Shown here: positions 12,234 to 62,113 of the stretch, one piece after another
Numbering within the stretch: position 1 is the first letter of the stretch
How the letters are laid out: the number at the start of each line of letters is the position of its first letter
Assembly (NCBI GenBank): GCA_038226425.1
Contig: JBBRQL010000001.1
Location: 495-64,494, forward strand
Length of the DNA stretch: 64,000 bases
From: Verrucomicrobiota bacterium
GTDB lineage: Bacteria; Verrucomicrobiota; Verrucomicrobiia; Limisphaerales; UBA9464
Reading direction: 5' to 3'
Notes under the pieces: generated by a model
What the model was told of the DNA's origin: nothing
Seen by the model: only the letters and a program-made list of their open reading frames with translations
Databases searched by the model: none
Position numbers and translations under genes: made by a program

Positions 12234-12285
12234 TCAGGAAAGGACCGGCCGGGTCGGGCGTCGTGGGAAGGTCGCGACGAAGCCG

Positions 12286-17063: not shown

Positions 17064-17906
17064 TCAGAAGCCTTGCCGCTCCGAGACGGTCTTGAGCGAC
17101 GGGATGGTCTTCTGGAGCTTGCGCATATCGGTCCGGTGGTCGGGTTCCGTCGCCAAGTCCGAGATCCCGACGCCTTTTTTTGGAGCCCGCCATCGATAAC
17201 GTTCCACGTGACCGTCCAAGAACGAGAGTGTTCCGCCTTGGTTGTGCCGGTCGGCGGGCACATCGAGCCAGTGGTCGCCGAAGAATCGATAGCCCTCGGG
17301 ATACAGCCCGAACGTGGCGTCGGCGATGGTGTCCTCGTGGACGTCGACGAAGGCCTGGCAATCGGAGATGCCGGGGTCGTTGACCTCGGTGAGCTTCGCG
17401 TAGGCGCCGCTACCGTCGGCGATCTGCGCGTTGAGCCAGATGCTGAGGTTGTAGCTGCGCGTCCTCGGCGCGAAGCCGCCGTTCTTCAGGGGGACCTTCC
17501 CGGGATCGGCGGGGCACCGGTAGATGCCTACCGTGCGGTTGTACGGGAAGAGCACCCCGTTCTGGATGTTGGTGGTCGTCGGGTCTCGCCGGACATCGCC
17601 GGGGCACCATGAGACCCCGGGGCTGAAGGTGCCGTCGCCGTTGTTGTCCACCTCGAGCACGGAATCGTTCTGCGGCAGCTCGTCGCGGTGGTCGCCGATG
17701 TAGAGCATGTAGGCGAGCTGGAGCTGCCGGAGGTTGTTCAGGCACGCGGTCGTCCTGGCCTGTTGGCGGGCCTTGGACAGCGCCGGCAGGAGCATCGCGG
17801 CCAGCACCGCGATGATGGCGATGACGACCAGGAGCTCGATCAACGTGAACGCGACGGGGTCCTTCCGCGGACCCCGGGACAATCGCGATGGACAGAAGAT
17901 GCCCAT
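17064..17906 (-). CDS. prepilin-type N-terminal cleavage/methylation domain protein, H-X9-DG (DUF1559-like) family
   Basis: [44 protein letters not shown] is a class III signal plus pseudopilin helix. The C-terminal [13 protein letters not shown] matches H-X9-DG. The start was taken at ATG 17906 (MGIFCPS...). Confidence 0.85.
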
Positions 17907-18022
17907 GTCATTCGACCCGGTAGGACACGAGGTCATCTACACCGGACCGGGACCCTCCGCCACAGCGAAGAACGGCGAAAAATCTCGGCCACCTCGCCGG
18001 TGCCGCGCACACTTCCGCGGAC

Positions 18023-19480: not shown

Positions 19481-21385
19481 ATGTTGAAGTCGAAGACATT
19501 CCTGGGTGTGGATTTTGGGGCCGGGAGCCTCAAGATCGCCGAGTTCGCGGTGACGCCGCAGAACGGGCTGCGCCTGCTCCGCTTCGGCGTGAAGCCGCTC
19601 GGTCTGGCCGGTTCGCAGGACGCCGCCCGCGAGAGCGCGCTGAAGAAGGCGCTGCCGGAGCTGCTCGCCGAGGGCGGCTTCCTCGCGAAGGAGGGCAACC
19701 TCTGCGCGCCCGGCTTCCAGGTCTTCTCCAAGTTCGTCAAGCTGCCGCCCGTCGATACCTCGAAGGTCACCCAGATCATCCAGTACGAGGCGCAGCAGAA
19801 CGTGCCTTTCCCGTTGGCCGAGACCGCGTGGGATTACCAGATCCTCGGATCCGCCCCGAGCGGCGAGCTCGAGGTCCTGCTCGTCGCGATCAAGTCGGAC
19901 GTCGTCGAGAAGCTCTCCGCCATCGGCGAGGCCGGCGGCCTCAAGATGTCGATCGTCGATTCGACCGTCGGCGCCTTGGCGAACGCCTTCCGGTACAACT
20001 ACGCCGACCAGGAGGGCTGCAGCCTGCTGCTCGACATCGGCGCGAAGACCAGCAACGTGCTCATCTTCGAGGCGAACAAGTACTACGCCCGCAGCGTGAA
20101 CGTCGGCGCGAACGCCATCACCCAGGAGTTCGCCGCCGAAGCGAAGCTGCGGTTCGACGACGCCGAGAAGTTCAAGATCTCCGATGGTTTCGTCAGTTTG
20201 GGCGGCGCCTATGAGGAACCGGACGATCCCAAGCAGGCCGCGGTCTCCAAGGTCGCCCGCAACGTCCTCACCCGGCTGCACCTGCAGGTCACGCAGACGA
20301 TCCAGTTCTACCGGACCCAGCAGGGCGGCAGCGCGCCGGTACGTGTCTTCCTGTGCGGTGGCGGTTCGATCATGCCGTACGCTTCCCAGTTCTTCCAAGA
20401 GAAGCTCAACCTGCCGGTCGATTTCCTGAACCCGTTCCGCAACGTGGAGATCGACCCCGGCGTCGACGTCGCGAGCCTCGAGAAATACGCGCAGTGCTTC
20501 GGCGAGGTCGTCGGCCTCGGGTTGCGCAACGTCGCGCAGTGCCCGATCGAGCTGAACCTGATCCCGAAGGCGTCGCTCACCCGCCAACAGTTCAATTCCA
20601 AGAAGCCGTACCTGCTCGCCGCGGCGTTCGTGCTGGCCGCCGGTGTGTTCGCTGTCGGCTGGTTCTACGCCAAGGTCGCCGATGCCCGACGCGACGGCTT
20701 GGCCAAGGTCGCGGCCCAAGCCGAACCGCTGGAGCAGAAGAAGACCAAGCTCGAGGCCGAGGAAGGCAAGCTCAAGAAAGCCGCTGAAGAAGCCGTCCTG
20801 CTGGGCAATTGGCTCCAAGAGCGGACTTACTGGGCGGACATCTTCACCGAGGTCCGCCGCGTCCTGAAACAGACCGAAGACCTCCAGCGGCAAGCGCTAG
20901 GGGTCCCGGTCGGTGTCTGGGTCGACACGTTCCTCTCGACGGAGCCTTCGGTCGCTGCCGGCCAGAGCGCCGAGGAAGAGAAGCCGATGACCGCGATGGA
21001 CCGGTACCGCATGGACCCGATCCTTGCCCGGCGCTACGGACTCGTCCCGAAAGGACCCGCGGGCGGCGAAGGTGGGGCCGAAGGTGGGGCCGGTGCTGCC
21101 GACGCAGGAGCCGGAGCGACGGGTGAAGCGAAGTCCGCCACCCCGAAAGCGGCGGCGGTCAACACCAACGAACTCGCGACGATCAAGGTGACCTTCCGCG
21201 CGGTGAGCATCAACGAATCGGCCAACAACCAGCTGATCTACGCTTTGGAGCGCGAGCTCAAGGCCAGCCCTCTGTTCGATGCCAAGGACACGCAGTTGTC
21301 CGGATCGATGGAGAAGGCGGAAGCGAACGCTCCGACGTTCTCGTTCCCGCTCAGCCTGAAATTGAAGCGTCCCATCAAGCTCTGA
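19481..21385 (+). CDS. pilM: PilM-like actin-fold ATPase fused to a PilN-like bitopic segment (Amuc_1101-like)
   Basis: FLGVDFGAGSLKIAEF, LLLDIGAKTSNV and VFLCGGGSIMP are PilM/FtsA-like. A TM helix YLLAAAFVLAAGVFAVGWFYA follows, then a coiled coil, a low-complexity G/A/E linker and a C-terminal alpha/beta domain. Confidence 0.9.
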   Translation: MLKSKTFLGVDFGAGSLKIAEFAVTPQNGLRLLRFGVKPLGLAGSQDAARESALKKALPELLAEGGFLAKEGNLCAPGFQVFSKFVKLPPVDTSKVTQIIQYEAQQNVPFPLAETAWDYQILGSAPSGELEVLLVAIKSDVVEKLSAIGEAGGLKMSIVDSTVGALANAFRYNYADQEGCSLLLDIGAKTSNVLIFEANKYYARSVNVGANAITQEFAAEAKLRFDDAEKFKISDGFVSLGGAYEEPDDPKQAAVSKVARNVLTRLHLQVTQTIQFYRTQQGGSAPVRVFLCGGGSIMPYASQFFQEKLNLPVDFLNPFRNVEIDPGVDVASLEKYAQCFGEVVGLGLRNVAQCPIELNLIPKASLTRQQFNSKKPYLLAAAFVLAAGVFAVGWFYAKVADARRDGLAKVAAQAEPLEQKKTKLEAEEGKLKKAAEEAVLLGNWLQERTYWADIFTEVRRVLKQTEDLQRQALGVPVGVWVDTFLSTEPSVAAGQSAEEEKPMTAMDRYRMDPILARRYGLVPKGPAGGEGGAEGGAGAADAGAGATGEAKSATPKAAAVNTNELATIKVTFRAVSINESANNQLIYALERELKASPLFDAKDTQLSGSMEKAEANAPTFSFPLSLKLKRPIKL

Positions 21386-21386
21386 T

Positions 21387-22409
21387 ATGGCCTGGATCAA
21401 GCGGAATCTTTTGTTCGTGGTCGGCTTGGCGGTCTCCGTCGCGTTGCTCGGTGCCGGGGTGTTCTACCTCTTCACCACGATGGACGAGGCCGACCGCGTC
21501 AGCGCCGAGCTCGACGCCAAGAACCAACAGCTCGACGGCTTGGTGAAGCGCGAGCCGTATCCGAACTCCGAGAACATCGAGAAGGTCAAGGAGGAGCAGA
21601 AACGGGTCGAGGCCTTCAAAAAAGATGCCCGCACCCGCTTCGGCCAGCTCGTGAGGCCCGGCTCGCTGGACAACGCATCGTTCAAGTCCCTGCTCGAATC
21701 GACGATCGCCGGGTTGACGCGCCAGTCCGAACGCATGGGGGTCAAGCTGCCGGAGAAGTACGACTTCACCTTCGCCGAGCAGCGGAAGCAACTCCAGTTG
21801 GCGACCAACACGCTGGTACCGCTGGCCACACAACTGGACGATCTGGACAACATCTGCCGCGTGCTCTTCGATGCCAAGATCCATTCCTTGGTGGCGTTGA
21901 AGCGGTCGGGGATGGCTTCGGGTGAAGCGATCGGCAGCGCGGATCTGTTGACCAAGAAGGTCGGCACCAATGCTTTGGCCGGTGGCTCGATCCACCCGTA
22001 CGAGATATCGTTCCAGTGTTTCAGCACCGAGCTGGGCAATGTCCTGGCCGGGTTCCTGAACTCTCCTCAGGCCTATGTGCTCAAGACGATCAATGTCGAG
22101 CGGGGTTCGACTTCCACGACAGCGGATCCGAACGCGGCTGCGGTAGGGTCGGGCCCCGTCCCGGGCCGGCCGGGAATGGATATGGCGATGGCTCGTCGCT
22201 ACGGGCTCGTGGGCGGCGGGAACCGCTACGGCCAACCCCAGCCTCAGGCCCCGGTCGCCGCCCCTGCGCCGACGCGCGCCGGAGAGACCGTCCTCGAAGA
22301 GAAACCGCTCCGGGTGACCATCGGCCTCGAAGTGGTCAAGCTCGCGGTCGCTCCGGTCGCACCCGTCGTCGACGCACCGGCCAAACCGACCACTCCCTCC
22401 GCTCGCTGA
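21387..22409 (+). CDS. Amuc_1100-like pilus-associated protein (PilO-like topology)
   Basis: N-terminal TM LLFVVGLAVSVALLGAGVFYLF, then a coiled coil. The block PYEISFQCFSTELGNVLAGFLNSPQAYVLKTINVERG and the C-terminal EEKPLRVTIGLEVVKL parallel what I recall of Akkermansia Amuc_1100 (PLEIAFQGDRESVLKAMNAI...FTVNSIRIRNE; KEQVFVQVSLNLVHF). Confidence 0.75.
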   Translation: MAWIKRNLLFVVGLAVSVALLGAGVFYLFTTMDEADRVSAELDAKNQQLDGLVKREPYPNSENIEKVKEEQKRVEAFKKDARTRFGQLVRPGSLDNASFKSLLESTIAGLTRQSERMGVKLPEKYDFTFAEQRKQLQLATNTLVPLATQLDDLDNICRVLFDAKIHSLVALKRSGMASGEAIGSADLLTKKVGTNALAGGSIHPYEISFQCFSTELGNVLAGFLNSPQAYVLKTINVERGSTSTTADPNAAAVGSGPVPGRPGMDMAMARRYGLVGGGNRYGQPQPQAPVAAPAPTRAGETVLEEKPLRVTIGLEVVKLAVAPVAPVVDAPAKPTTPSAR

Positions 22410-22412
22410 CCC

Positions 22413-23207
22413 ATGCAATTCCTCAAAAAGCATTACGAGAAGATCGTCCTCGGCGTGGTCTTGCTCTGCGTCGCCGCGACGTCGCTGGTTCTCACGATGC
22501 GTGCCGGCGATGAGCGGCAGAAACTCGCGGAGCAGCTCCAACAGAAAGTCGGCGGGAAACAAAAGCCTCTGAAGCCGGTCGAACTTGCCGGCAGCATGGC
22601 TTCGTTGGAACGGTTGTCGAAGCCTTCGGTGGTCACTCTTGCCGGCGAGCACAAGACCTTCAATCCGGGCACGTGGATCCGCAAGGCCGACTCCAGCATC
22701 GCACCGGTCGGTGACAAGGGCGGCCGGGGCGCCGAAGGCCTCACGCTGGTCGCCGTCCGCCCTCTCAATCTTTCGGTGACCTATGCGTCGGTCGCCGGCA
22801 CCGGTGAACCGTACCGTTACCAGTTCATCGTCGCACGCGACCATGAGAAACAGGCACCGAAGCGCCGCCCGACGACGATCTCGCTGACCGAGGGGACCAA
22901 GAACGATCTTTTCGTCCTCCGCGAGGTCCACGGTCCCAAGGACAATCCGACCGACGTCGTGATCGAGGTCCTGTCCGGCAACGAGCGCGTCACCTTGTCC
23001 AAGGACAAGACCTACACCAAGGGGATGGATTTCGCGGCAGACCTCCGCTACGAGGCCGAGAACAAGAACTTCACCGCGAAACGTCCCGACGAATCCTTGG
23101 TGTTGTCCGGTGCGACGTACAAGATTGTTGCCATCCAAAAAGACGAGCTTGTAGTCTCAGCGCCTAATCAAGTCCGCACCACGATCAAGCTCTCCCCCGC
23201 GCCCTGA
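22413..23207 (+). CDS. Amuc_1099-like pilus-system protein (bitopic, PilP position)
   Basis: 264 aa with the N-terminal TM IVLGVVLLCVAATSLVLT. It sits between the Amuc_1100-like gene and the secretin, with 3-nt and 48-nt gaps. Confidence 0.65.
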   Translation: MQFLKKHYEKIVLGVVLLCVAATSLVLTMRAGDERQKLAEQLQQKVGGKQKPLKPVELAGSMASLERLSKPSVVTLAGEHKTFNPGTWIRKADSSIAPVGDKGGRGAEGLTLVAVRPLNLSVTYASVAGTGEPYRYQFIVARDHEKQAPKRRPTTISLTEGTKNDLFVLREVHGPKDNPTDVVIEVLSGNERVTLSKDKTYTKGMDFAADLRYEAENKNFTAKRPDESLVLSGATYKIVAIQKDELVVSAPNQVRTTIKLSPAP

Positions 23208-23255
23208 CCCGAGTCCGATCCTTTACGCTTTCGAGTTCCAACCGAGAAGAACCCC

Positions 23256-26012
23256 ATGACCAAAGTGTCCAAACTCCTCCGCGTGTTCCTGCTGTGCGCC
23301 TGCGTCCAAGGCGCGTCGGGGCAGGCCCCGAGCCAGATCGCTGAAGAAGAAGCCATCCGGCGCCAGGAAAAGTCGATCCTGTTGCGCAGCACGCTTGAGG
23401 CAGCTCAGACGGCGCAGAAACAGAACGATCTCAAGACCGCTGCCAAGCTCTATGAAGATGCGTGGTCGTTGACCGAGGTGCTCGGGGCGAACGTGGAGGC
23501 CGAACGCCGCCAGACCGTGGCCGGTCTTTCCGGATCGCGCCTTCAGCTGGCCATCGCCGCGCAACGCGCCGGCGATGCGCGTGAAGCGGACACCCAGGTC
23601 ACCCGCGCGCTGAAGGTCGATCCGAACAACACGGTCGCCAAGAGCTTCAAGAAGGACAACGACCGCCGTCTGGCCGACCTTCAGGGCAGATTGCCGAGCG
23701 AAGCCGTCTTGGCCCGTGCAGCGGACCACAGCACCAACATGGTCAAGGTCGCGTCCTCGGTCCAGGACGGCGTGGTGCTGTACCAGATGAACAAACTGGA
23801 CGAGGCCGAGGAGGTCTTCCAGAAGGCGATCAAACAACAACCTGAAAACCAGGCCGCCTATTACTACTTGAACCTGATCCGCGAGGCGAAGTTCACCCGT
23901 GCGGCCAAGAACAAGTCGCTCACCACCAAGGACCGGCTGGTCGAGGTCGAACAAGCTTGGGAAACGCCCAAGTCGAACCTCCCCATCGCCAACCCGTGGG
24001 CCAAGACCAATCTGATCCACACCGGCAACGGACGCCAGATCATTGCGAGCAAGCTCGACCGGATCATCCTCAACGAGGTCAAGTTCGACGGTCTTCCATT
24101 GACCGAGGTCGTCAAGTACCTCGAAGAACAGGCCAAAGCCCGCGACCCCGAGAAGCGTGGTGTCAATTTCCTCATCAGCTCCAGCATCGACGTCCCGACC
24201 CCGCAGGCGACCCAGCAGTTCGACGCGACCGGCCAACCGGTAGCTTCGGCTCCGGTCGAACCGCTTGACCTCGGCAATGTGGTCATCCGCCTCAACCCCG
24301 GTCTGCACAACGTCCGGTTGGCCGATGCATTGGACGCCGTGACCAAGGTCGCTGAAAAACCGCTCAAGATATCGATCGAGGACTACGCGGTCATCTTCAC
24401 GCAGCGCCTGCCGGAGCCCGTCCAGTTGCACGCACGGCAATTCCGTGTCGATCCGAACACGTTCATGCAAGGGCTCCAGAGCGTTTCAGGCATCGACCTT
24501 GGTACGACCTTCCAGAGCACCGGTGGCGGCGGCGGCGGTGGTGGCGGCGGCGGCGGTGGTGGCGCCCAAGGCGGCCAAGGTGGTGGCATCTTCAATGTTC
24601 CCCGCGTCGATGTGAGTTCCAGCAGCAGCCAAGGTGGCGGTGGCGGAGCGGGTGGGCAGGGTGGACAAGGGATCACCGGTGTCACACGCACCAACTTGAT
24701 GGCCAATGTCCAAGTGATGGTTCGCCAATTTTTTGCGGCGGCCGGCGTCAACTTCCCGCAGACAGCCGTCCCCGGCCAAGGCGGGGCCGGTGGTGGCGGC
24801 GGTTTCGGAGGCGGCGCGCAGCAACAGCAGTTCGGTCTCAACGGCCAGGCCCAAGAAGTCGATGCGAAGGCGCTGTTCTTCAATGACCGGACCGGCATCT
24901 TGTTTGTGAGGGCGACTTTGTCCGACCTCGATATCATCGAGAAGGCCATCCAGGCGTTGAACATCGCTCCGGCCAACATCGAGATCGAGGCACGTTTCGC
25001 GGAGGTCAGCCAGACTGACAGCAAGGCGCTCGGGTTCCAATGGTTCTTGGGAAATTTCCTGATGGGCGGTGGCAAAGTAGGTCTTAGCGGTGGAACCGCT
25101 CCTTCGTATCAAGGGCAAGCGTCTGCGGCCAACCCCGACGGGGTGTTCCCGCAGTACGGGAACATCTTGCCTTCGGGCAGTGACCAGAACGTCACCGCCG
25201 GCCTTCGGAACATCGATGGAAATCAAAGTGCCATCCCGACCGTGGCGACGCTGAGCGGCATCCTTACCGACCCGCAGTTCCGCGCGGTGATCCAAGCACT
25301 CGACCAGCGTGATGGCGTCGAGTTCCTCATCGCACCGAAACTGGTCACCCAGAGCGGGCGTCAAGCCCATATCGCGGTGAACGATGCCCGCACGGTCGTC
25401 GTGGGTGTCGGTCAGAACCAACAAGGTTCTGGCGGCGGTACCGGAAACACTGCCAACGGTGTCAACGGCAACACGGGCGGCGGCGGCGCCGTCGCAACCG
25501 CGATCCAATACCAGACCACGGTGTTCCCGTTCGGTCCGACCTTGGATGTCGTCCCGTACGTCTCTTCCGATGAGTCGTCCATCCAGATGACCATCATCCC
25601 GAGCCTCACGGAATTCGTCGGCTACGATGATCCGGGCGGTTTCGTGCCGCAGGCCCAGTCCGTCGCCGGGAACACGGTCGGTACCTCGTTGAAGGCGGTC
25701 TTGCCGCTCCCTCGTATCCGGGTTCGCCAAGTCGTGACCAGTGCCACGGTCTGGGACGGCCAGACGGTCGTCTTGGGCGGCCTCATCTCCGAAGATGTGA
25801 AAAAATCGCGGGACAAGGTGCCGGTCCTGGGTGACATCCCGGTGCTGGGACGCCTCTTCCGCAGCGAGAACTCGCTGAACATCAAGAAGAACCTCATCAT
25901 CTTCGTGACGCCGACGATCCTCGATCCGTCCGGCCATCGCGTGAACGATCCGCGTAGCCTCCCGTTCGATCCGAACTCCTTCCCGGCCTTGGCTCCGACC
26001 GCGATCAAATGA
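23256..26012 (+). CDS. pilQ: outer-membrane secretin (PilQ/GspD family, Amuc_1098-like) with N-terminal TPR region and Gly-rich linkers
   Basis: Signal LLRVFLLCACVQGASGQA and a TPR-like N-terminus. STN-like LDRIILNEVKFDGLPLTEVVKYLEEQ. Secretin core ...VTSATVWDGQTVVLGGLISEDVKKSRDKVPVLGDIPVLGRLFRSENSLNIKKNLIIFVTPTIL. Confidence 0.9.
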   Translation: MTKVSKLLRVFLLCACVQGASGQAPSQIAEEEAIRRQEKSILLRSTLEAAQTAQKQNDLKTAAKLYEDAWSLTEVLGANVEAERRQTVAGLSGSRLQLAIAAQRAGDAREADTQVTRALKVDPNNTVAKSFKKDNDRRLADLQGRLPSEAVLARAADHSTNMVKVASSVQDGVVLYQMNKLDEAEEVFQKAIKQQPENQAAYYYLNLIREAKFTRAAKNKSLTTKDRLVEVEQAWETPKSNLPIANPWAKTNLIHTGNGRQIIASKLDRIILNEVKFDGLPLTEVVKYLEEQAKARDPEKRGVNFLISSSIDVPTPQATQQFDATGQPVASAPVEPLDLGNVVIRLNPGLHNVRLADALDAVTKVAEKPLKISIEDYAVIFTQRLPEPVQLHARQFRVDPNTFMQGLQSVSGIDLGTTFQSTGGGGGGGGGGGGGGAQGGQGGGIFNVPRVDVSSSSSQGGGGGAGGQGGQGITGVTRTNLMANVQVMVRQFFAAAGVNFPQTAVPGQGGAGGGGGFGGGAQQQQFGLNGQAQEVDAKALFFNDRTGILFVRATLSDLDIIEKAIQALNIAPANIEIEARFAEVSQTDSKALGFQWFLGNFLMGGGKVGLSGGTAPSYQGQASAANPDGVFPQYGNILPSGSDQNVTAGLRNIDGNQSAIPTVATLSGILTDPQFRAVIQALDQRDGVEFLIAPKLVTQSGRQAHIAVNDARTVVVGVGQNQQGSGGGTGNTANGVNGNTGGGGAVATAIQYQTTVFPFGPTLDVVPYVSSDESSIQMTIIPSLTEFVGYDDPGGFVPQAQSVAGNTVGTSLKAVLPLPRIRVRQVVTSATVWDGQTVVLGGLISEDVKKSRDKVPVLGDIPVLGRLFRSENSLNIKKNLIIFVTPTILDPSGHRVNDPRSLPFDPNSFPALAPTAIK

Positions 26013-26099
26013 ACGGATGCGCCACGGAATTGGAAGTCCGCGGCGCGTGCAGGGAACCAATGTTGACAACTGTGAACGGACAGTCAAATTGACAAGCTT

Positions 26100-27605
26100 A
26101 TGCCGAGTCTGAGTTTCAAAACGCAGAGACCTTGCCTAGGTCGGGCCGGATGGGTCGCCGCTCTCGCGGTGATGTCCGCGTGGGCTGGGTTGGGATCCAC
26201 CGGCTTCGTCGACGATGGCGGTGAGTTCCTGCCCTTGGGCGTCCCTGCCGGGGACCAGACGAATCCTGCCTTGGCCATCAACGCCGAGGGCGGTTACGTG
26301 GTCTGGCAGGAGAACAGCGGGGCTGCCGGCACCTACACGATCCGGGCGCGTCGCCTGAACCGGGCGTTGACCGGATGGTACCGTTCGTTCGTCGTGAATT
26401 CCGCCGTTGAAGGCAGCCACGAAGAACCGCAAGTCGTCCAATTGGCCGACGGTGGAGCCGCCTTTTTCTGGCGCGGTGGACCACTCGGCAAACAAGGGAT
26501 CTACGCGCGTTTTCTGAAGCCCGGTGGCGGCAATGCAGCCAACTTCGTCGGCGATGATCTCGAGATCAGCGCCGCGGGTCGCGGGCAGAACCAGAATGTC
26601 AGCGCCACGGCTCTCAAGGACGGCAGCATTCTCGTGACCTGGGCCAACTACGGCGACGACGGAAGCGGTTTCGGCGTCTTCGCTCAACGTATTTCGGCCA
26701 CCGGTGAGAAGATCGGCGGCAAGTTCCAGGTCAACTCCACCACCGCTTCCAACCAGCGCTCGCCGTCGGTGACTGCGATGCCCGACGGAGGTTTTACCAT
26801 CGCATGGGTCTCGGAAGGCCAGCGGACCGACCCGTCCCGCGACATCCTTTGCGACGTCTACTCGCGTGTCTTCGGACCCTCCGCCAAGGCGACCACCGGC
26901 GAGATGCGCCTGAACCAAGGCCTCAACTTGGCTGCCACCCCTTCGCTGGCCGCCAACGCGGACGGTGGGTTCGTTGCCGCCTGGGCTGAGCGTGATCAAG
27001 CTGTGGCCGCGAACGGCTGGGACATCATGGCCGGTTCGTTCAACCGTGACGGGGTGGCCATCAAGCCGAACGTCCGGCTCAACACCTTTCTCAAGTCGGA
27101 CCAGCTCGCGCCCAAGCTGGCCGCTGTCAACGGTTCCGTGATGGCGACGTGGACCAGCATGGGCCAGGACGGCTCACGGGAGGGCGTGTTCGCACGCAGC
27201 TTCGCCCCGACATTGGAACTGCTGGACGAGGAGTTCGGGGTGAACCAGACGACCGTCAGCCAGCAGATGGATCCAGTGGTCGCCGCGGACTCGACCGGCC
27301 GGGTCTTGTCCGTGTGGACCTCCTTCAATTCCATCGAGAGCGGTTTCGATCTGGTCGCCCGCAAGTTCGCCGCTCCGGCGTCCATCACCAAGCTGGCCTG
27401 TGACATCGTCAAGACCGCCGAAGGTGCCCGGTTGACTTGGCAGACCGAACCGGGCCGCACCTACCAAGTTCAACGCTCGCTCGACCCGATGGCTTGGGAC
27501 GCCGCTGAAAAAAGCGACCGCACGGCTGTCGGCTCATCGGATTCCATGGCGTTCCCGCTCGGCGCGTCCGGTGGGACCTTCTTCCGCGTCGTACGGCTTC
27601 CTTGA
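26100..27605 (+). CDS. secreted seven-repeat (beta-propeller-like) protein with shared C-terminal module
   Basis: Signal WVAALAVMSAWAG. It has seven repeats of the type Q..P.v..l.DGGF.v.W.s...DGS..GVFA.rf. The C-terminus is TYQVQRSLDPMAWDA...FFRVVRLP. Confidence 0.8.
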   Translation: MPSLSFKTQRPCLGRAGWVAALAVMSAWAGLGSTGFVDDGGEFLPLGVPAGDQTNPALAINAEGGYVVWQENSGAAGTYTIRARRLNRALTGWYRSFVVNSAVEGSHEEPQVVQLADGGAAFFWRGGPLGKQGIYARFLKPGGGNAANFVGDDLEISAAGRGQNQNVSATALKDGSILVTWANYGDDGSGFGVFAQRISATGEKIGGKFQVNSTTASNQRSPSVTAMPDGGFTIAWVSEGQRTDPSRDILCDVYSRVFGPSAKATTGEMRLNQGLNLAATPSLAANADGGFVAAWAERDQAVAANGWDIMAGSFNRDGVAIKPNVRLNTFLKSDQLAPKLAAVNGSVMATWTSMGQDGSREGVFARSFAPTLELLDEEFGVNQTTVSQQMDPVVAADSTGRVLSVWTSFNSIESGFDLVARKFAAPASITKLACDIVKTAEGARLTWQTEPGRTYQVQRSLDPMAWDAAEKSDRTAVGSSDSMAFPLGASGGTFFRVVRLP

Positions 27606-27612
27606 TCAAGTT

Positions 27613-29160
27613 ATGTCGCGTCATTTTCTAGCGTTGTTCATCGCTTCGTTGGTGTTCATCGCACCAAGGCAAGTTCATGGTTTTTCTCTCCTAGGAGCAC
27701 GGCCAAGCTGGCAGACGCCCGAAGTCGGGCTCGCGCCACCGTACCCGTCCGGAGTTGGGGGGGTCATGTATCTTGGCGAAGGATATCGCTTCAACATGCC
27801 GGTGTTGACCTACGCCTACGATGCCTCGTTTCTCCGTTATTTCGGGGCGAACGGAGTCGCAGCCATCGAATCCGCGATGAAGGTATTGAACGACCTTCCA
27901 GCGGCCGATAGCATGAGTGCCACGTTGGAGGAGTTTCCAACGACCACATTGCGCCACAACGCCACAGCAAGCGCTCTGTCGATCATCGATCTCAAGACGA
28001 CGACACTGTCGTTCATGCTAGAGCAACTCGCTGTCGCGGCTCCGGAAAACTATGTCTGGTCCATCCGCGCACATTTCACGGACCCGGCCGGTATCGACCA
28101 CTTTTCCGTCATCAATCCGAATTATGATCCGGTCACGTTGACTCAGTCATCCTTCATCAACGGATATCAGTATACCTACCAGATCCGCCAGACTGATACA
28201 GCGGAGTGGAAAACCGCCAATTTCCCGGTCGACCCCTTGGCGCCTAGTTTCACTACGGTGGCGAATTATGGACAAGCGTTCTTCGCGAGGGGCCGAGGTG
28301 GTTCGTTGGCGTTCGGTCCTGGTTCCTATTTCCCAGCATTGACCCGTGAGGACGTGGCAGCATTCCGATACATGCTGAGCACGACAAATTACGCAGTGGA
28401 ATCCCTCCTGCCTGATGTGATCGCTTCGACAGGTGGTGCTCTTGGAGTGAGCGGTGGAACTTCGGTCGGCAGCGGTGGTCTTGGCGGCGGTGGAGGTGGT
28501 GGCTTTTCGGGAGGGTTTGGAGCACCGTGGAGTCCTGCCTTCTCGGTTGCAGTCGGTGGAGCTGGGACTTCGAATCCTCCTTGGTCGATCGTGGCCGCCA
28601 GCACCAATGTCGCGACCAATGCGGTGGTGGTCACGGTGACCGGTGGTTTGCCTTCGGTCGTGAACGCCCTTCGGCCCGGTGTCGGCAAATATAGTTTTGT
28701 CCAGATCGGTTACGATTCGATTCTTGGTGCGGCGACCCGTCCCTACTTGGTGACTTGGCTTGATCGATATGTGACCAACAGTGTGACCCGGGTACAAGCG
28801 CTTGCCCGACAGATCACGACCCCCGACATCCTCTTTTCGGCCGCCGATCTTGGGGTGATCGATCATCTTCCGATTCTCAGTTCAATTACGGCTGATGGGT
28901 TTGTGAACGATTCCGCGCTGAACAGGGTCAACGGGGGCGGATTCGGAGAACTGGCCGGTCCCGGCATCATCACCTCCGGCAAGGAGATCACCTTCAGCAA
29001 GATCGGGCGCTACTACATCAACACCGAGGAGACCACCGAAGCCGACGGCTTTCTTTTCGGTGGATGGGGCTCGTTCGACGGCTCTACCAACGCGCCTGTG
29101 TTGTATCCCAGTGGAACCTCGATCAAGGCGATCGAGAAGCTGGTGCTCGGCGGACGGTGA
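27613..29160 (+). CDS. secreted hypothetical protein with internal poly-Gly tract
   Basis: Start ATG 27613 (MSRHFLALFIASLVFIAPRQVHG, signal peptide) lies 8 nt after the upstream stop. It contains GSGGLGGGGGGGFSGGFG. No family was recognised. GC is clearly lower than the flanks. Confidence 0.75.
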   Translation: MSRHFLALFIASLVFIAPRQVHGFSLLGARPSWQTPEVGLAPPYPSGVGGVMYLGEGYRFNMPVLTYAYDASFLRYFGANGVAAIESAMKVLNDLPAADSMSATLEEFPTTTLRHNATASALSIIDLKTTTLSFMLEQLAVAAPENYVWSIRAHFTDPAGIDHFSVINPNYDPVTLTQSSFINGYQYTYQIRQTDTAEWKTANFPVDPLAPSFTTVANYGQAFFARGRGGSLAFGPGSYFPALTREDVAAFRYMLSTTNYAVESLLPDVIASTGGALGVSGGTSVGSGGLGGGGGGGFSGGFGAPWSPAFSVAVGGAGTSNPPWSIVAASTNVATNAVVVTVTGGLPSVVNALRPGVGKYSFVQIGYDSILGAATRPYLVTWLDRYVTNSVTRVQALARQITTPDILFSAADLGVIDHLPILSSITADGFVNDSALNRVNGGGFGELAGPGIITSGKEITFSKIGRYYINTEETTEADGFLFGGWGSFDGSTNAPVLYPSGTSIKAIEKLVLGGR

Positions 29161-29188
29161 CACCCACCAGCCCTTAAAGTCCTAAGAC

Positions 29189-32074
29189 ATGAAACGTTTT
29201 CCATTCCGGTCGGTGCTCGCTGCGCTGGTTGTCTGGTGCTTTGTTCCATCGGCTCAAGCCTATGTGAACAACGGTGCCGTGACCATCGTGCCGGTCATCG
29301 ACGATGTGTCCTTTGTCAACAACGGCCTGATCCAGATCGCCACTGAACTTCCGTTCGAGACCCAGAACACGCTGTATTTCACCAATTCCGGGACCATCCT
29401 CGCCGGCAGCTTCTTCGGAGGATCTTTTGCGAACGGAGGCGTCCGCTTCGAGTACATCAACGGAGCGACCGGATATCGCAGCCCGGCCTCTGTCATCGAG
29501 AACGAACAGGGAGCCGCCATCACTGGTCGCCCTTACGTGCTGTTGAACGCGACCAACATCGTCAACCGAGGGACGTTCACGGTGCCGGCGGATGGGCTCA
29601 TCCGTTTGACCGGACAGAACGTCGACCTCTCCCGCGGAAAACTTGATCTCGGTGCCTTGGACGGGAACAGCCTCAGCGATGGATACGTCACCGACACGAA
29701 CCTGTTTGTCGGGGCCTCCGGTGTGACGGATCTTCATTGGGGGACCGACACGGTCGATCTTCCCCTTGCGTCCTTTTTCAAACTGTTGCCGAGCGGGGCG
29801 CAGGTCACGACACCGGGATATCGCGTATTTCCCGACGGCCGCATCGTGATGTCGTTGAAATCGCCGTCCACGTATCTGTACCAGCAGTTCGACGGCCCGC
29901 CCAAGACGCCCACCAACCAGATCATCCAGGCCGTGTTCGTGCTCAACGGGAACACGAACATCAACGTGGATGTGTCCTTTCTCGATAGCGATGAACGGAC
30001 GAACAGGTTCAAGATCCCGACGGTCCAGTTCAGCGGCTTCGAGACCAACGTGATCACGAGACAGAAGCAGCTCAGGTCGATCTGGTTGTCGGATTCCTTG
30101 ACCGCGAATTCGCTGCTCTTCGCGGACACGAATGTGTTCCTGAACACCAACGGGATTGCCGGAAGTTTCCGCCCCGAGAATTTCGATATCTATCGCAACG
30201 GGGTCGGCGGGGCACGCCCGAACGGGACGCTGACGAACGACACGTTCCTGAAGTTCCTGTCCCCCGAGTTCACCAACGGGATGGCGTACACCAACGCGAC
30301 CGTTCCTGCGTTCTATTCGGCCTACAAAGCCTATATCAACGGTCAGTTGACCTTCGGTGCGAATCTTCCGGATGCCGACATCACCAACTACGGCGGCCGG
30401 CTCGAGATCAACGCGGACAACCTGAATCTTCAGGACGCGCGCATCCGCGGTGTGGGTGTCGTCAACGCCAAGACCAAGAACTTGGTGAGCTCTGCTGGAG
30501 CGGTCATCGACGTGCCCTATCTCTATTATGATCTGGATTCCGCGGATGGGAACTTGGTCTTGCGCAATCTTATCGCACCTTCGGTGAGCCGGTTCGCGTC
30601 CGGGACCATCCAAGCATGGAGCGCACTTTGGACCAATGGCTTCTCGGTGAACGTCACCAACACGACGGTCGGGACGGACGGGACCACGAACTCCGAGGTG
30701 ACCGCGCAGGATTACCAGACCGTCTTCCACGTGCTGCTGGTCGCGAGCGCTTTGGACACTATCGGGTCGGTGGACATCACGGGGTTGAACACCCGTGCGA
30801 CGAATACGACAGTCGCCGACAAGGTGTCCATCTCGCGGAGGTTCCAGACCAGTTCGGACACCTTGTCCATCGATGGCGAATTCAAGCTTGGTACCTTGAC
30901 CGCCAGCACCCTGTTCGACTTCGGCGCCACCAATGCGCCGAACCTCCGGTACCTTACCAACCGGGGAATCATGAACATCGCCGGCTACGCTAATTTCGGG
31001 AGCGATCGCGCGACACCCTACGAGGTCTTCAACAACTCGCGGACGAATCTTGCGACCGGTTTCTCGATAACCTCGAAAGTCTTCCAAAACTCGGGCTCGT
31101 TGCAGTCCTCCTTCGGCCCCATCTCGATCGTCGCCGGTTCCGCTGCGCTCGATGGGAACGATAGTTTGGTGCGTTCTCCGAAGGATATCTCTCTGACGGC
31201 GACGACCCTCAAGGTCCGTGGCGGGAGCGTACGGAGCAGCAGAGGCATCCAGCTCGCCGTGACGGATTCGCTCACGGATGCAGGTATCAGCACGCCCACC
31301 ACATTTGTGAGCAGCTATGGATTCTCGCTCGCAACGCTTCCGAAGGTGAGCAGTCTGCTTGGCGCCAACTTCGAGGTCAACACCACCGAGGGCGGCACGG
31401 CCGACATCTCTTGGCCGGGCAATGATCTCGGTGCCGGTCCATCCGGCTACGTGAACAATGCGGTCATCGGCCATCTGGTGCTCAACTTGGCTCCGGACAG
31501 CCTGTTGACCCTCACCGAGACCGGCTCGAAGAACGCGCTCTACGTCGACTACTTGGAGATGAACTCCGCCATCGCTGATGACTTGGCTTCCTATGTCGAC
31601 ATCGGGGCAGGCATGACGCTCTACTTTGCCGACTCCAACATCCCGATCGAGAAGCTCGACGGGGCTCTTGGCGGCCATATCAAGTGGGTTTCGACCTATG
31701 CCGGACCGCGCAGCGGTGTGGATGTCGCGCTGGGCAACGGCAAGACCATCCGCATCAACCGCGCGCTGTTCGATAGCAAGTCGATCGACTCGGACAGCGA
31801 CGGTATCGCCAACGGATTCGACACGACGCCGTTCGGTGGCGTCCCGGTGACCGTCAAGGTCATCAACCTGCCGCCGTTGACGACCGAGATCTCTTGGATC
31901 GGCGCCCCGAAGACGGCTTACCGTGTCGAGGCCGCGGCCTCGTTGTCCCCGACGCTATGGGACTTGGTGTCCCGCGTGACCAACAATGCCGCTGTGTCCG
32001 TGCCGCTCAGCGTCCGTGAACCGGTGCCCGCCGACAATGCGGTGCGCTACTTCCGTGTGACCTACGAGCCCTGA
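29189..32074 (+). CDS. large secreted repeat protein (possible beta-helix/adhesin-like) with TSP3-like Asp motif and shared C-terminal module
   Basis: Signal MKRFPFRSVLAALVVWCFVPSAQA. It has N/T/G-rich repetitive strands (NATNIVNRGTFTVPADGLIRLTGQNVDLS...) and DSDSDGIANGFD. The C-terminus is TAYRVEAAASLSPTLWDL...RYFRVTYEP. Confidence 0.8.
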   Translation: MKRFPFRSVLAALVVWCFVPSAQAYVNNGAVTIVPVIDDVSFVNNGLIQIATELPFETQNTLYFTNSGTILAGSFFGGSFANGGVRFEYINGATGYRSPASVIENEQGAAITGRPYVLLNATNIVNRGTFTVPADGLIRLTGQNVDLSRGKLDLGALDGNSLSDGYVTDTNLFVGASGVTDLHWGTDTVDLPLASFFKLLPSGAQVTTPGYRVFPDGRIVMSLKSPSTYLYQQFDGPPKTPTNQIIQAVFVLNGNTNINVDVSFLDSDERTNRFKIPTVQFSGFETNVITRQKQLRSIWLSDSLTANSLLFADTNVFLNTNGIAGSFRPENFDIYRNGVGGARPNGTLTNDTFLKFLSPEFTNGMAYTNATVPAFYSAYKAYINGQLTFGANLPDADITNYGGRLEINADNLNLQDARIRGVGVVNAKTKNLVSSAGAVIDVPYLYYDLDSADGNLVLRNLIAPSVSRFASGTIQAWSALWTNGFSVNVTNTTVGTDGTTNSEVTAQDYQTVFHVLLVASALDTIGSVDITGLNTRATNTTVADKVSISRRFQTSSDTLSIDGEFKLGTLTASTLFDFGATNAPNLRYLTNRGIMNIAGYANFGSDRATPYEVFNNSRTNLATGFSITSKVFQNSGSLQSSFGPISIVAGSAALDGNDSLVRSPKDISLTATTLKVRGGSVRSSRGIQLAVTDSLTDAGISTPTTFVSSYGFSLATLPKVSSLLGANFEVNTTEGGTADISWPGNDLGAGPSGYVNNAVIGHLVLNLAPDSLLTLTETGSKNALYVDYLEMNSAIADDLASYVDIGAGMTLYFADSNIPIEKLDGALGGHIKWVSTYAGPRSGVDVALGNGKTIRINRALFDSKSIDSDSDGIANGFDTTPFGGVPVTVKVINLPPLTTEISWIGAPKTAYRVEAAASLSPTLWDLVSRVTNNAAVSVPLSVREPVPADNAVRYFRVTYEP

Positions 32075-32104
32075 GTTAGCTCCATCTTTCGACGTCATCT
32101 GATT

Positions 32105-35100
32105 ATGCTTCGCCAGCGACTTTGGGTTCTTGCCGTAGGTCTCCTGTTATCCGGGGCCGTCCTGCGTGCCGAGGAAAGCTCCGACACCATAGTGATCGCG
32201 GGCCACAAGGCCCATGCCACGCGGATCTTCGCCAAGCACAAGCAAGGCGGTATCGGGATCGGTTCCCAGGTCCGCCCGGCTGCTTTCGCGAAGATCGCGT
32301 CGGTCGGTCTGAACGTGCGGAAAGAGTACTCCCTCGTTCCGGGATTGTTGAGCTTGGACGAGCCGAAGGGAGGACTCAGCACCTCGGCGATCCTGACGAC
32401 GGACATGCGCATCCGTCGCATGGCCGAGCGGATCGAGACTTTGAAGGCCACGGGACTCTTCGAGTATGTGGAGCCCGATTTCGTGGTGACGGCGAACGCG
32501 GTTCCCGATGATCTCCGCTTCCGCGATGGAACGCTCTGGGGACTACAGAACACGGGCCAAGACGGCGGCACCGCCGGTGCCGACATCGATGTGGTCAGAG
32601 CTTGGGACATCACGACGGGGACCAACTCCGTTGTGGTCGCGGTCATCGACACCGGTATCCGCTACACGCATCGTGACCTCGCCGCGAACGTCTGGACCAA
32701 TCCTGGAGAAATCCCGGGCAACGGGATCGACGACGACAAGAACGGGTATGTCGACGATGTCCATGGCATCAACTCGCTGAACGGTTCCGGTGATCCGTAC
32801 GACGACAATTTCCACGGCACCCACGTTTCCGGGACGATCGGCGCCGCGGCGAACAACGGTGAGCCCCATGTCGGCGTGGCATGGAAGGTATCGTTGATGG
32901 GTCTGAAGTTTTTGGATTCGAACGGGAGCGGCTTCCTCTCGGATGCCATCGAGTGCATCCAATACGCGGTCAAGATGAAGGTGCCCATCTCCAACAACAG
33001 TTGGGGCGGTGGCGGCGCGGACCAGGCGTTGGCGGATGCCATCCTTGCGGCCGGAAACGCCGGGCACCTGTTCGTCGCGGCGGCCGGGAACGCGGCGTCC
33101 AACAACGACATCGAGTTCGACACGCCTGCCAGTTATGCGTTCGACAACATGATCTCGGTCGCGGCGATCAATCGTAAGGACCAGCTCGCCGACTTCTCCA
33201 ACTTCGGCAACCGTACCGTCCACATCGGTGCTCCCGGCGTCGACATCTATTCGACATGGACCTCGTCCGACAGTTCATATGATGTGATCAGTGGAACGAG
33301 CATGGCATGTCCTCATGTCGTCGGTGTCGCGGCGTTGGTCTTGGCCGCGAATCCGAAGGCGAACCTTTTCGAGCTCCGGCAGCGCATCTTGAACTCCGCG
33401 GTACCGACCACCGACCTTGCCGGCAAGACCGTCACGGGGGGGCGCGTGAGCGCGTATCGTGCGGTGAGCGGGGTCGTCGACGGGAAGCTCGAGCTTTCTC
33501 TCACGCCTCCGAGCGGGTCCGCGCTCCTGGAAGGGAACGCCACGCCGATCTATCTCCGTGTGACCGACTTGGTGGCCGTCACGAATGCCGTCATCGTCGC
33601 TACCCTCAACGGCCCCGGATTGACCGATGTCCCGTTGGTGTTCACCAACAACGGCGTCCTTCCGGATGTCATCGCTCTCGACGCGACCTATTCCGCAACG
33701 TTCCCGGCGGCAGCCAAAGGGTTCTACATCTTGGATGTGATCGCCACCGCCAAAGGCAAGGAAGGAGTGACGAATTCGTTCAGCTACTCGGTCCAACCTC
33801 GCCCCGACAACGACCAGTTCAAGAAACCCAAGAAGATCGCGTTGGCCGGCGAACAACTCCGGGGCGAAGACACCCGGTTGTCATCTTTCGAGCCTGGTGA
33901 GTCCTCCACGTTTGCCGGTCCGGATGGTGTCGGATCGCTTTGGTATGCTTGGACGCCTACCAAGTCCGGAACGGCCTTGATCGACACGTTCGGGACCGGT
34001 GTGCCCGTGGCGGTCGGGGTCTTCACCGGCGACAACCTCAACACATTGGCTTTGGTGGCGTCCGGTGTGCCGGTGGCTCCTAAGACGGCCACGACCTTCT
34101 CGTTCAATACGGTGGGCGGGACGACCTATCGGATCGTGGTGATCGGTAAGGGTGAGGCAGGTCGCGGCATCTTCCGGTTGCGGTTGACCCCAGATGCGGT
34201 CGTCGACCGGACCGCGCCACAGGTCGCGTTCACAAGCCCCGAGAACGGGTTCATCGCGACGACGAACCAGGTCATCGTCAGAGGGATCGCGATCGACCCA
34301 AATCCCGGAGCCTCCGGGGTCCGCCAAGTGTTGGTGAACGGTCAGAGCGCCGGGATCACCAATGGCGTCTGGTCCGCTAAAGTGGCGTTGAAGACCGGTA
34401 TCAACACCGTCACTGCCGTGGCCCAAGATTTCGCGGAGAACGTCTCCGCATCGGTGAGCATCAACATCAATCTACGGGCCGCGAGCATCGCGAACGACGG
34501 ATTCATCGGTGCGGCGGAGTTCGCCGACCTGATCGGCACGGAGAAAGGGAGCAACATCAACGCGAGCCGTGAGTTCGGGGAACCGCAGCACGGAGGGAGC
34601 GAGGGCGGACATTCTGTCTGGTGGCGATTCACCGCCCCGTCGGACGGCGTGCTCGGCCTGAGCACCGCGTCATCCAGCTTCGACACGTTGCTCGGCGTGT
34701 ATCTCGGCGACACGGTCGACAACCTGACCACCTTGGCGTCGAACGATGACGAGAAAGCGGGCACCAGCCAGAGCGCAGTCGCTGTCGCCCTGCGCGCCGG
34801 TCAGACGGCCCGCATCGCGGTGGACGGGTTCTCCGGCGCGACGGGAGCGATCAGCCTATCGCATACATTTCTGAAAGGCACTGTGCGCCCGGTAACGGTG
34901 CTGGCTGGTGCTGGCGGCAGCGTCTCGGCGTCGATCAGCAATCTTCCGGTCGTGCTCAAAGGAGTCTATGCCGACGGCACGACCTTGAATCTGACCGCTA
35001 CCGCTGATCCGCGGTACGAGTTCATCGGCTGGACGGGGACGACCAAGTCGTCGGACAACCCACTGAAGGTCGTGGTCGGGAGCGAAGTCAGCTTGATCGC

Positions 35101-35761
35101 CAATTTCCAGGTCGTGGCGTTCAGCGACGACTTCGAATCCGGCGACTTGAAGCATCTTGCTTGGGTGACCGGCGGGTCGACCCCTTGGGGAGTCCAGACC
35201 AACACTGTCTCGCTGGGCCGCTTTGCAGCGAAAGCGGGCACGATCACCGACAACCAATGGAGTTCGTTGGTGGTCGATGCGAATTCTTTCACCGGTGAAG
35301 GCGCTTTCGATGTCAAGGTCAGCTCCGAAGCGGGATGGGACCAGTTGGAGTTCTACGTGAACGGCACGGTGGTCCAACGCTGGTCCGGTGATGTAGCATG
35401 GACGACCTTCACTTTCCCGGTCGCGTCCGGAGCCAATCGTTTCGAATGGCGTTACACCAAGGACGCAGTGAACAGCGTCGGCGAGGACACCGCTTGGTTG
35501 GACAACGTCCAGCTCCGCATCCGTCCTGAAGTGGACCCGACAATCCCGGTCGTCTTGACGTTCTCGGGCTATAGCGACGCAGGGGCTGAGATCGAGGTCC
35601 GCGGACAGATCGGTCAGGCTTACCAAGTCCAAGCGTCCAACGACTTCGTCCAATGGACGACGATCAGCACCAAGGTGAACAGCACCGGCACGTTCACCGT
35701 GAGCGATTCCGCGACCTTCGGTCGTTCGGAACGCTTCTATCGCGTCATCCTTGCTCCCTGA
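32105..35761 (+). CDS. secreted subtilisin-like serine peptidase (S8 family) with roughly 800-aa C-terminal extension and shared C-terminal module
   Basis: Catalytic triad contexts VAVIDTGI (Asp), HGTHVSGTIGA (His) and SGTSMACPHVVGVAAL (Ser). Signal LWVLAVGLLLSGAVLRA. The C-terminus is QAYQVQASNDFVQWTT...RFYRVILAP. Confidence 0.9.
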   Translation: MLRQRLWVLAVGLLLSGAVLRAEESSDTIVIAGHKAHATRIFAKHKQGGIGIGSQVRPAAFAKIASVGLNVRKEYSLVPGLLSLDEPKGGLSTSAILTTDMRIRRMAERIETLKATGLFEYVEPDFVVTANAVPDDLRFRDGTLWGLQNTGQDGGTAGADIDVVRAWDITTGTNSVVVAVIDTGIRYTHRDLAANVWTNPGEIPGNGIDDDKNGYVDDVHGINSLNGSGDPYDDNFHGTHVSGTIGAAANNGEPHVGVAWKVSLMGLKFLDSNGSGFLSDAIECIQYAVKMKVPISNNSWGGGGADQALADAILAAGNAGHLFVAAAGNAASNNDIEFDTPASYAFDNMISVAAINRKDQLADFSNFGNRTVHIGAPGVDIYSTWTSSDSSYDVISGTSMACPHVVGVAALVLAANPKANLFELRQRILNSAVPTTDLAGKTVTGGRVSAYRAVSGVVDGKLELSLTPPSGSALLEGNATPIYLRVTDLVAVTNAVIVATLNGPGLTDVPLVFTNNGVLPDVIALDATYSATFPAAAKGFYILDVIATAKGKEGVTNSFSYSVQPRPDNDQFKKPKKIALAGEQLRGEDTRLSSFEPGESSTFAGPDGVGSLWYAWTPTKSGTALIDTFGTGVPVAVGVFTGDNLNTLALVASGVPVAPKTATTFSFNTVGGTTYRIVVIGKGEAGRGIFRLRLTPDAVVDRTAPQVAFTSPENGFIATTNQVIVRGIAIDPNPGASGVRQVLVNGQSAGITNGVWSAKVALKTGINTVTAVAQDFAENVSASVSININLRAASIANDGFIGAAEFADLIGTEKGSNINASREFGEPQHGGSEGGHSVWWRFTAPSDGVLGLSTASSSFDTLLGVYLGDTVDNLTTLASNDDEKAGTSQSAVAVALRAGQTARIAVDGFSGATGAISLSHTFLKGTVRPVTVLAGAGGSVSASISNLPVVLKGVYADGTTLNLTATADPRYEFIGWTGTTKSSDNPLKVVVGSEVSLIANFQVVAFSDDFESGDLKHLAWVTGGSTPWGVQTNTVSLGRFAAKAGTITDNQWSSLVVDANSFTGEGAFDVKVSSEAGWDQLEFYVNGTVVQRWSGDVAWTTFTFPVASGANRFEWRYTKDAVNSVGEDTAWLDNVQLRIRPEVDPTIPVVLTFSGYSDAGAEIEVRGQIGQAYQVQASNDFVQWTTISTKVNSTGTFTVSDSATFGRSERFYRVILAP

Positions 35762-61955: not shown

Positions 61956-62113
61956 GACGGCTTCCCTCGACCCTAGCCGGCCACGCGGCAAATAGCTATC
62001 TGTCGCATCGGGCCGGGTGCGGTCCGAAGGGGCGGTCAGTTGAGGTGAGAAAGCGGGTGCGGGAACGGGGGATGCAGCGGTGAAGCCGGTCGCGGACCTC
62101 CTTGGTGTCGCGT

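Follow-up and report, generated by a model that had tools for sequence, protein, structure and literature searches.

A C-terminal Fn3-like module on exported proteins of Verrucomicrobiota, a candidate address or surface-retention tag

A stretch of 64,000 nucleotides from a Verrucomicrobiota bacterium (Limisphaerales, UBA9464; assembly GCA_038226425.1, contig JBBRQL010000001.1, positions 495 to 64,494 of the forward strand), referred to here as the window, encodes four proteins whose C-terminal ends had been noticed to resemble each other in an earlier note made from the sequence alone. We found that these four proteins share one homologous C-terminal domain, called the module below and predicted to be a beta-sandwich, that belongs to a very large sequence family centred on Verrucomicrobiota and lies, almost without exception, at the C-terminus of the diverse exported proteins that carry it. 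By analogy with known sorting domains, we give a probability of about one half to the reading that the module is a C-terminal address or surface-retention tag. The coordinates of all features are collected in Table 1.

Three of the carriers, namely gA, gC and an S8 subtilase, are encoded by one operon, and the fourth is a CotH/LTD protein encoded elsewhere in the window on the opposite strand. On translation the four C-termini were reproduced as the earlier note had quoted them, with proline directly before each stop and the common tail [FY][FY]R[VI]xxxP-stop, although the module proved to be about 65-75 amino acids long and not roughly 60. All four had been described as giant secreted proteins. 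A Sec-type signal peptide could be read at the start of every one of them, but with lengths of 501, 961, 1218 and about 1650 amino acids (gA, gC, the subtilase and the CotH protein, respectively), the gA protein is not a giant. TSP3-like DxDxDG repeats, claimed ahead of the module in two of the proteins, are borne out for the CotH protein (ORF, or open reading frame, 57009-61991, minus strand), in which Pfam places CotH, LTD, CHB_HEX_C_1 and TSP3_bac upstream of the module, but only a single DSDSDG was visible by eye in gC. Such repeats were rejected as a regular partner of the module, as D.D.DG precedes it in only eight of 111 outside proteins.

Taken by themselves, the four tails are weak evidence of common descent. 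Their mutual identity is only about 20-27%, pairwise phmmer comparisons gave E values of 0.06 or worse, and when each tail was searched with a hidden Markov model (HMM) of the other three, three were recovered weakly (E value between 3e-4 and 3e-2) and the CotH copy was missed. At the level of sequence, homology is settled by an external-only HMM, which was built on 416 module copies in unrelated outside proteins and searched against the 755 six-frame ORFs of the window. The four tails were the top four of the 755, each aligned at its exact C-terminus, and the next match had an E value of 0.58. A fifth copy was not found in HMM scans of the six-frame ORFs of the 64-kb window. That four beta-rich C-termini merely resemble each other by chance, as the weak pairwise similarity might suggest, is refuted by the external-only HMM (E value between 6e-16 and 2.4e-5 at the exact C-termini) together with the thousands of homologues in the profile search described below, and we attach practically no weight to it.

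The position of the module was scored in metagenome contigs sampled with a DNA pattern for PQRFYRV that contains no stop codon, both in the copies selected by the pattern and in bystander copies, with a copy taken as terminal if it lay at most 12 residues from the stop. Terminal copies made up 84 of 87 selected and 20 of 21 bystander copies (104 of 108 in all), 107 of 108 ORFs carried a single copy, and proline was the last residue in 59 of the 104 terminal proteins (57%). Among bystander ORFs in genome loci, 15 of 20 had the module ending within three residues of the stop. Tandem arrays are a minority of carriers; they account for all of the best-scoring 150 of 40,897 representative proteins, with 2-9 copies each, because scores add, and in 141 of these 150 arrays the last copy lies within 12 residues of the C-terminus. 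Exclusive C-terminal placement, which the earlier note had proposed as a check, is thus found in the large majority of proteins but breaks down for the internal copies of arrays and for a few copies with downstream domains.

Of 139 terminal copies, 94 have their stop four to five residues past the arginine of FYR. Across samples, 55-60% of terminal copies end in Pro-stop, compared with proline at the equivalent +4/+5 positions in 59 of 321 internal copies (about 18%), and the Pro-stop is a real, roughly three-fold enriched trait of the terminal copy. The best cross-protein match was a terminal copy for 82 of 130 terminal versus 58 of 286 internal copies, a preference that could be explained by positional orthology. 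The idea that the terminal copies of arrays form a specialised type was rejected, since their consensus is the same as that of internal copies.

As modeled, the module is a compact, autonomous Fn3-like domain and constitutes a sequence family of its own without a Pfam or NCBIfam model. AlphaFold2, run on the gA copy with an alignment of 35 sequences, predicted a six-strand beta-sandwich with a mean confidence score (pLDDT) of 90, and a Foldseek comparison with PDB structures ranked Fn3 and cytokine-receptor domains highest, with template modeling (TM) scores of 0.6-0.7 but E values of 0.06 or above. The earlier note had named a generic Ig/Fn3 domain without C-terminal bias as the outcome that would speak against a sorting role; the predicted fold looks Fn3-like, and the C-terminal bias is strong. 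Using the module profile to search PDB sequences, we found weak matches to the Fn3 chains 1cfb, 3mpc and 4u3h (E value between 6.6e-4 and 0.017), while the best match covered 52 of 72 profile positions and fell on discoidin-type CBM32 modules from a glucanase/chitosanase of Paenibacillus (2rv9, 4zxe; E value 1.5e-5), with which the module has the local motif v.L.W.....Y.IQ.S.D....W..v in common. Weak F5_F8_type_C_2 and CBM31 traces also appeared in module searches. The module consensus is ..l.W....G..Y.VQ.S.dL..W..l.......g....tD......RFYRV...P.

No Pfam-A or NCBIfam model matched over the module, whether the four carriers of the window or multi-copy carriers from outside were scanned, in agreement with the earlier view that it has no named family. 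Pfam fn3 did not match over the module, and its matches in carriers fall in other regions. There was no full-length match to discoidin/CBM32 (F5_F8_type_C), a jelly-roll of about 130-150 amino acids; the module has about 70 amino acids and six predicted strands. The four window proteins had no Pfam match to PPC (PF04151) and no NCBIfam match to PEP-CTERM (TIGR02595 and relatives), their ...FYRVxxxP tails being without a hydrophobic helix, and neither they nor the multi-copy carriers matched the C-terminal domain (CTD) of the type IX secretion system (T9SS; TIGR04183 / PF18962) at an E value of 0.01 or below. Full-text searches of the literature found neither the motif nor a Verrucomicrobial C-terminal sorting domain.

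In order to gauge the size of the family, 1.84 billion representative proteins were searched with the module profile, which returned 40,897 proteins at an E value of 1e-3 or below and 1,509 at 1e-10 or below; the larger total includes some cross-hits, such as the ordinary Fn3 arrays P0149 and P0249 and the T9SS protein P0168. Word-indexed homology searches with the short module alignment gave very little, with three close orthologue fragments in one search and 28 small fragments in another. A degenerate DNA pattern for QRFYRVxxxP-stop matched at least 120 loci in a collection of species-representative genomes. Among the matches listed, 113 of 120 loci held an HMM-confirmed module, and the module-bearing loci came nearly all from metagenome-assembled genomes (MAGs) of Verrucomicrobiota (Limisphaerales, Pedosphaera, subdivision 3, Chthoniobacteraceae and Prosthecobacter); pattern matches in isolates of other phyla (e.g. 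Blautia hansenii) had no module, and the non-Verrucomicrobial labels that did hold it were all on MAGs. Eight MAG contigs labelled Bifidobacteriaceae or Bifidobacterium (L005, L014, L060, L076, L081, L107, L114 and L115) carry HMM-confirmed modules at 55-63% G+C and probably represent contigs of Verrucomicrobiota that were mislabelled or misbinned. As a false-positive control, the same pattern was run against 2.9 million viral contigs, where it gave seven matches and no real module. To judge by these searches, the family is very large and its centre is in Verrucomicrobiota.

The proteins to which the module is attached were examined by scanning 62 complete carriers against Pfam and NCBIfam. 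Their Pfam domains include Ig/I-set, pro-kumamolisin, CarboxypepD_reg, DUF11, He_PIG, SBBP, RCC1 and NHL, along with GDSL lipase, GH18, M10/matrixin, LTD and P-domain proteins. This variety, together with the predicted six-strand sandwich, upholds the earlier description of a common beta-rich C-terminal module on otherwise unrelated exoproteins. Among 72 outside ORFs that are complete, a crude test detects a signal peptide in at least 42, and the linker ahead of the module is enriched 1.7-fold in proline. In NCBIfam, five of the 62 carriers matched the choice-of-anchor GloVer repeat, and others matched myxosortase-dependent and rhombosortase-dependent M36 peptidases and the PEP-CTERM protein ScyF. 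The definitions of those families involve other C-terminal sorting signals (PEP-CTERM, MYXO-CTERM and GlyGly-CTERM in other lineages), and their match to module carriers is the strongest comparative argument for a module that sits in an anchor slot.

Several known C-terminal domains invite comparison. The T9SS CTD resembles the module in being a small beta-sandwich of Ig/Fn3 type that closes many unrelated signal-peptide exoproteins within one phylum, mostly as a single copy and often on proteases and adhesins; the placement, single-copy occurrence and predicted fold reported above for the module all fit this pattern. The two differ in that there is no sequence match, in phylum (Bacteroidota versus Verrucomicrobiota) and in the tandem arrays of the module family. 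The one true T9SS-tailed protein among the profile matches (P0168) was hit through ordinary Fn3 repeats, and Verrucomicrobiota are not known for T9SS. PEP-CTERM, MYXO-CTERM and GlyGly-CTERM tails (handled by exosortase, myxosortase and rhombosortase, respectively) take the same slot on GloVer repeat, M36 peptidase and NHL/ScyF-like cargo, but they consist of a short motif, a transmembrane helix and a basic tail, whereas the module is a folded unit without such a helix. Fn3 (PF00041) has the W...Y.V pattern in common with the module and, by the TM scores, may have a similar fold; the module is shorter, has six predicted strands and is set apart by its strict C-terminal position and RFYRV...P ending. 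PPC is a C-terminal beta domain of about 70 amino acids on secreted peptidases, sometimes in tandem; the module has no HMM match to it and a cargo far broader than peptidases. CBM32/discoidin domains are about twice as long, fold as jelly-rolls and align with only part of the module.

The operon that encodes three of the carriers consists of eight genes, in the order PilM, Amuc_1100-like, Amuc_1099-like, secretin, gA, gB, gC and S8 subtilase. The region between 20000 and 36000 has a G+C content of 0.59-0.63 versus 0.66-0.71 elsewhere in the window. About 1.5 kb upstream of the operon lies a prepilin-type N-terminal methylation / DUF1559 protein (17064-17936, minus strand) with a weak match to Verru_Chthon cassette D. 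In Akkermansia, Amuc_1098-1102 have been described as an abundant envelope or pili-like cluster, in an account that does not mention Amuc_1097 (PMC5332112), and the conserved eight-gene operon represents an extension of that cluster.

We compared the operon with its counterparts in other genomes. In L001 and L002, gC homologues with 33% and 42% identity, respectively, occur in the same operon order, and within about 23 kb the only proteins to end in the module are gA, gC and the subtilase. The pattern of modules on gA, gC and the protease is thus kept in three divergent genomes, counting that of the window. Module genes elsewhere occur at a density of very roughly one per 40-50 kb (estimated from the window and the flanks of the loci), and on this rough estimate three module genes among four adjacent ones would be unlikely by chance. 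The Amuc_1100-like and Amuc_1099-like genes keep their positions in L001, L002 and L125-L127. The gB slot between gA and gC is filled in L002 and L125-L129 and holds two genes in L001, these being matched by position and not by homology. Across 100 proteins (97 gC homologues and three short module fragments), 83 have an [FY]R motif within the last 22 residues. In distant operons, giant Calx-beta/DUF5122 proteins stand in place of the subtilase, and the giant of L129 ends in a FYRV-type module.

An alternative C-terminal beta domain was seen on gC in the more distant operons. It has about 105 amino acids, the consensus ...G.F.G...QG..L...G.GFFLG.NQSG.V.L and no Pfam match. In L125 and L127 it is also carried by gA (E value 5e-28 with an HMM made from gC tails only), and in L105 it is present on an unrelated ORF of 1151 amino acids. 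Its structural model (pLDDT 76) bears a weak likeness to the TbpB/HphA eight-strand barrel (E value between 0.013 and 0.05) that has no sequence support, and from which no conclusion was drawn. A different arrangement was seen in L003 (1-18985), which lies on a 10.5-Mb contig. There, T2SSF, three N_methyl pseudopilin genes and three unannotated genes stand directly ahead of an S8 protease of 2994 amino acids that bears the module eight times, a layout that looks like a Verru_Chthon cassette.

The function we favor for the module is that of a C-terminal address or surface-retention tag. The Sec system would take the tagged protein to the periplasm, where the folded C-terminal domain would be recognised, leading either to passage of the outer membrane or to retention of the cargo on the cell surface, by the same logic as the T9SS CTD or PEP-CTERM-type tails. 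Tandem copies would give more avidity or reach, and gA, gC and the S8 protease would be tagged because they are themselves envelope or surface proteins. A number of observations weigh against such a role. Known secretion CTDs occur singly, and the module occurs in tandem arrays of 2-9 copies whose internal members, lying upstream within C-terminal arrays, have a consensus identical to that of the terminal ones; in a few cases a GDSL-like, beta-propeller-like or cytochrome-c-like region comes after the module. Distant gC homologues carry the GFFLG domain in place of the module, the gA proteins of L126, L128 and L129 lack a C-terminal module, and one operon mixes FYRV-type and alternative C-terminal domains. 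Co-variation of the module among operon partners gave a mixed result, and since orthologous operons swap or drop the module, it is exchangeable and not indispensable to those proteins. The conserved W, Y, W and FYR look like core residues, so that no conserved binding surface is evident.

Part of this evidence would also suit a generic, Fn3-like cap or spacer that plays no part in targeting. It would be a stable end-domain that helps large exoproteins to fold or guards their C-terminus, as PPC or PKD domains may on secreted proteases, and would have spread by domain shuffling within one phylum. The Fn3-like fold and weak profile matches to Fn3 chains, the tandem arrays, the indistinguishable consensus of terminal and internal copies, the loss or replacement of the module in orthologous operons and the frequency of proteases among carriers all fit such a role. 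A spacer would not, however, need to take the final place in about 96% of its carriers with the stop four to five residues after the last strand, and the cargo families elsewhere bear true sorting signals in the same slot; we consider a purely structural role unlikely, if a serious contender. Less probable again is a role in binding a carbohydrate or other ligand, by which the module would bring enzymes and adhesins to a substrate outside the cell and not to the cell's own envelope. The CBM32 chitosan-binding modules as best PDB sequence match over 52 positions (E value 1.5e-5), the F5_F8_type_C_2 and CBM31 traces and the presence of GH18, pectate lyases and amylase-like proteins among the carriers speak for binding; but the module is half as long as a discoidin domain and has an Fn3-like fold match, most carriers are not glycoside hydrolases, and carbohydrate-binding modules are not restricted to the extreme C-terminus.

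A more specific proposal is that the module is the recognition signal of the adjacent Amuc_1098-type secretin, with module proteins genome-wide as its substrates and with gA, which is beta-propeller-like, and the S8 protease as a processing or attachment complex comparable to PorZ and PorU of T9SS. The earlier note had already raised a tie to this secretin, and such a tie is possible on the strength of the conserved operon, as only one of the four genes behind the secretin is without the module and the other three remain tagged in L001 and L002; the L003 protease directly behind its T2SSF and pseudopilin cassette is also in keeping with it. Variant operons, in contrast, keep the secretin without a module on gA or gC, and most of the sampled module genes were not shown to lie near secretins. 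The proposal is doubtful. The same low standing applies to its full extension to a Verrucomicrobiota-specific pathway of export and surface attachment. In it the module would be the cargo tag and the Amuc_1098-type secretin operon the machinery, the tagged gA, gC and S8 protease would, by analogy with PorZ and PorU, make up a complex for processing or attachment, and about one hundred proteins per genome, as a guess, would be the substrates.

The module is distinct from the PEP-CTERM signal that the earlier note had placed near the end of the window. The 159-amino acid protein encoded there matches PEP-CTERM models and the four carriers do not, and to judge from this tail the organism appears to use exosortase-type sorting alongside the module. 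Elsewhere in the window, a 1080-amino acid RecG ORF (12073-15315, plus strand) aligns with RecG models over two or three stretches that lie apart, and its residues 627-724 match the REP-associated tyrosine transposase (RAYT) model NF047646 (E value 1.8e-15), which looks like a RAYT-like segment inside recG.

Table 1. Coordinates of the module copies, the secretin operon and related features (window positions unless a locus is named)
Feature	Position	Strand	Remarks
gA C-terminal Fn3-like module	27393-27602	+	External-only HMM E 3.8e-8, at C-terminus
gC C-terminal module	31847-32071	+	External-only HMM E 3.5e-9
S8 subtilase C-terminal module	35549-35758	+	External-only HMM E 6e-16
CotH/LTD giant protein C-terminal module	57012-57218	-	External-only HMM E 2.4e-5, weakest of four
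Last-residue Pro codons	27600-27602, 32069-32071, 35756-35758, 57012-57014		Four window copies
Operon, PilM to S8 subtilase	19481-35761	+	Eight genes
Amuc_1101-like PilM	19481-21385	+	First operon gene; NCBIfam Amuc_1101_fam E 1.7e-139; PilM_2
Amuc_1100-like gene	21387-22409	+	NCBIfam E 2.1e-23
Weakly Amuc_1099-like gene	22413-23207	+	NCBIfam E 8.8e-4
Amuc_1098-like secretin with TPR region	23256-26012	+	Amuc_1098_fam E 1.6e-105; Pfam Secretin E 4e-31
gA, 501 aa, repeat-rich	26100-27605	+	Module-bearing; no Pfam match
gB	27613-29160	+	No module, Pfam or NCBIfam match
gC, 961 aa	29189-32074	+	Module-bearing; no Pfam match
S8 subtilase, 1218 aa	32105-35761	+	Module-bearing; Peptidase_S8 at residues 174-438
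Protein with PEP-CTERM-type tail, 159 aa	63524-64000	-	E 1.6e-5, below family cut-offs
Carriers of the alternative C-terminal beta domain, L125	5125-7518, 10001-13942		
Carriers of the alternative C-terminal beta domain, L127	5275-7530, 10001-13981		
Carrier of the alternative C-terminal beta domain, L105	44-3496	-	

Verrucomicrobiota are abundant polymer degraders in soil, freshwater and gut, and how they export and display large exoenzymes is poorly understood. An unmodelled, phylum-wide C-terminal domain present in tens of thousands of representative proteins provides a marker of a large set of their exoproteins, and an HMM of the module would label many proteins now called hypothetical. 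In its position and its range of cargo the module is sorting-tag-like, and a dedicated sorting or retention route in Verrucomicrobiota may exist, which is a testable hypothesis.

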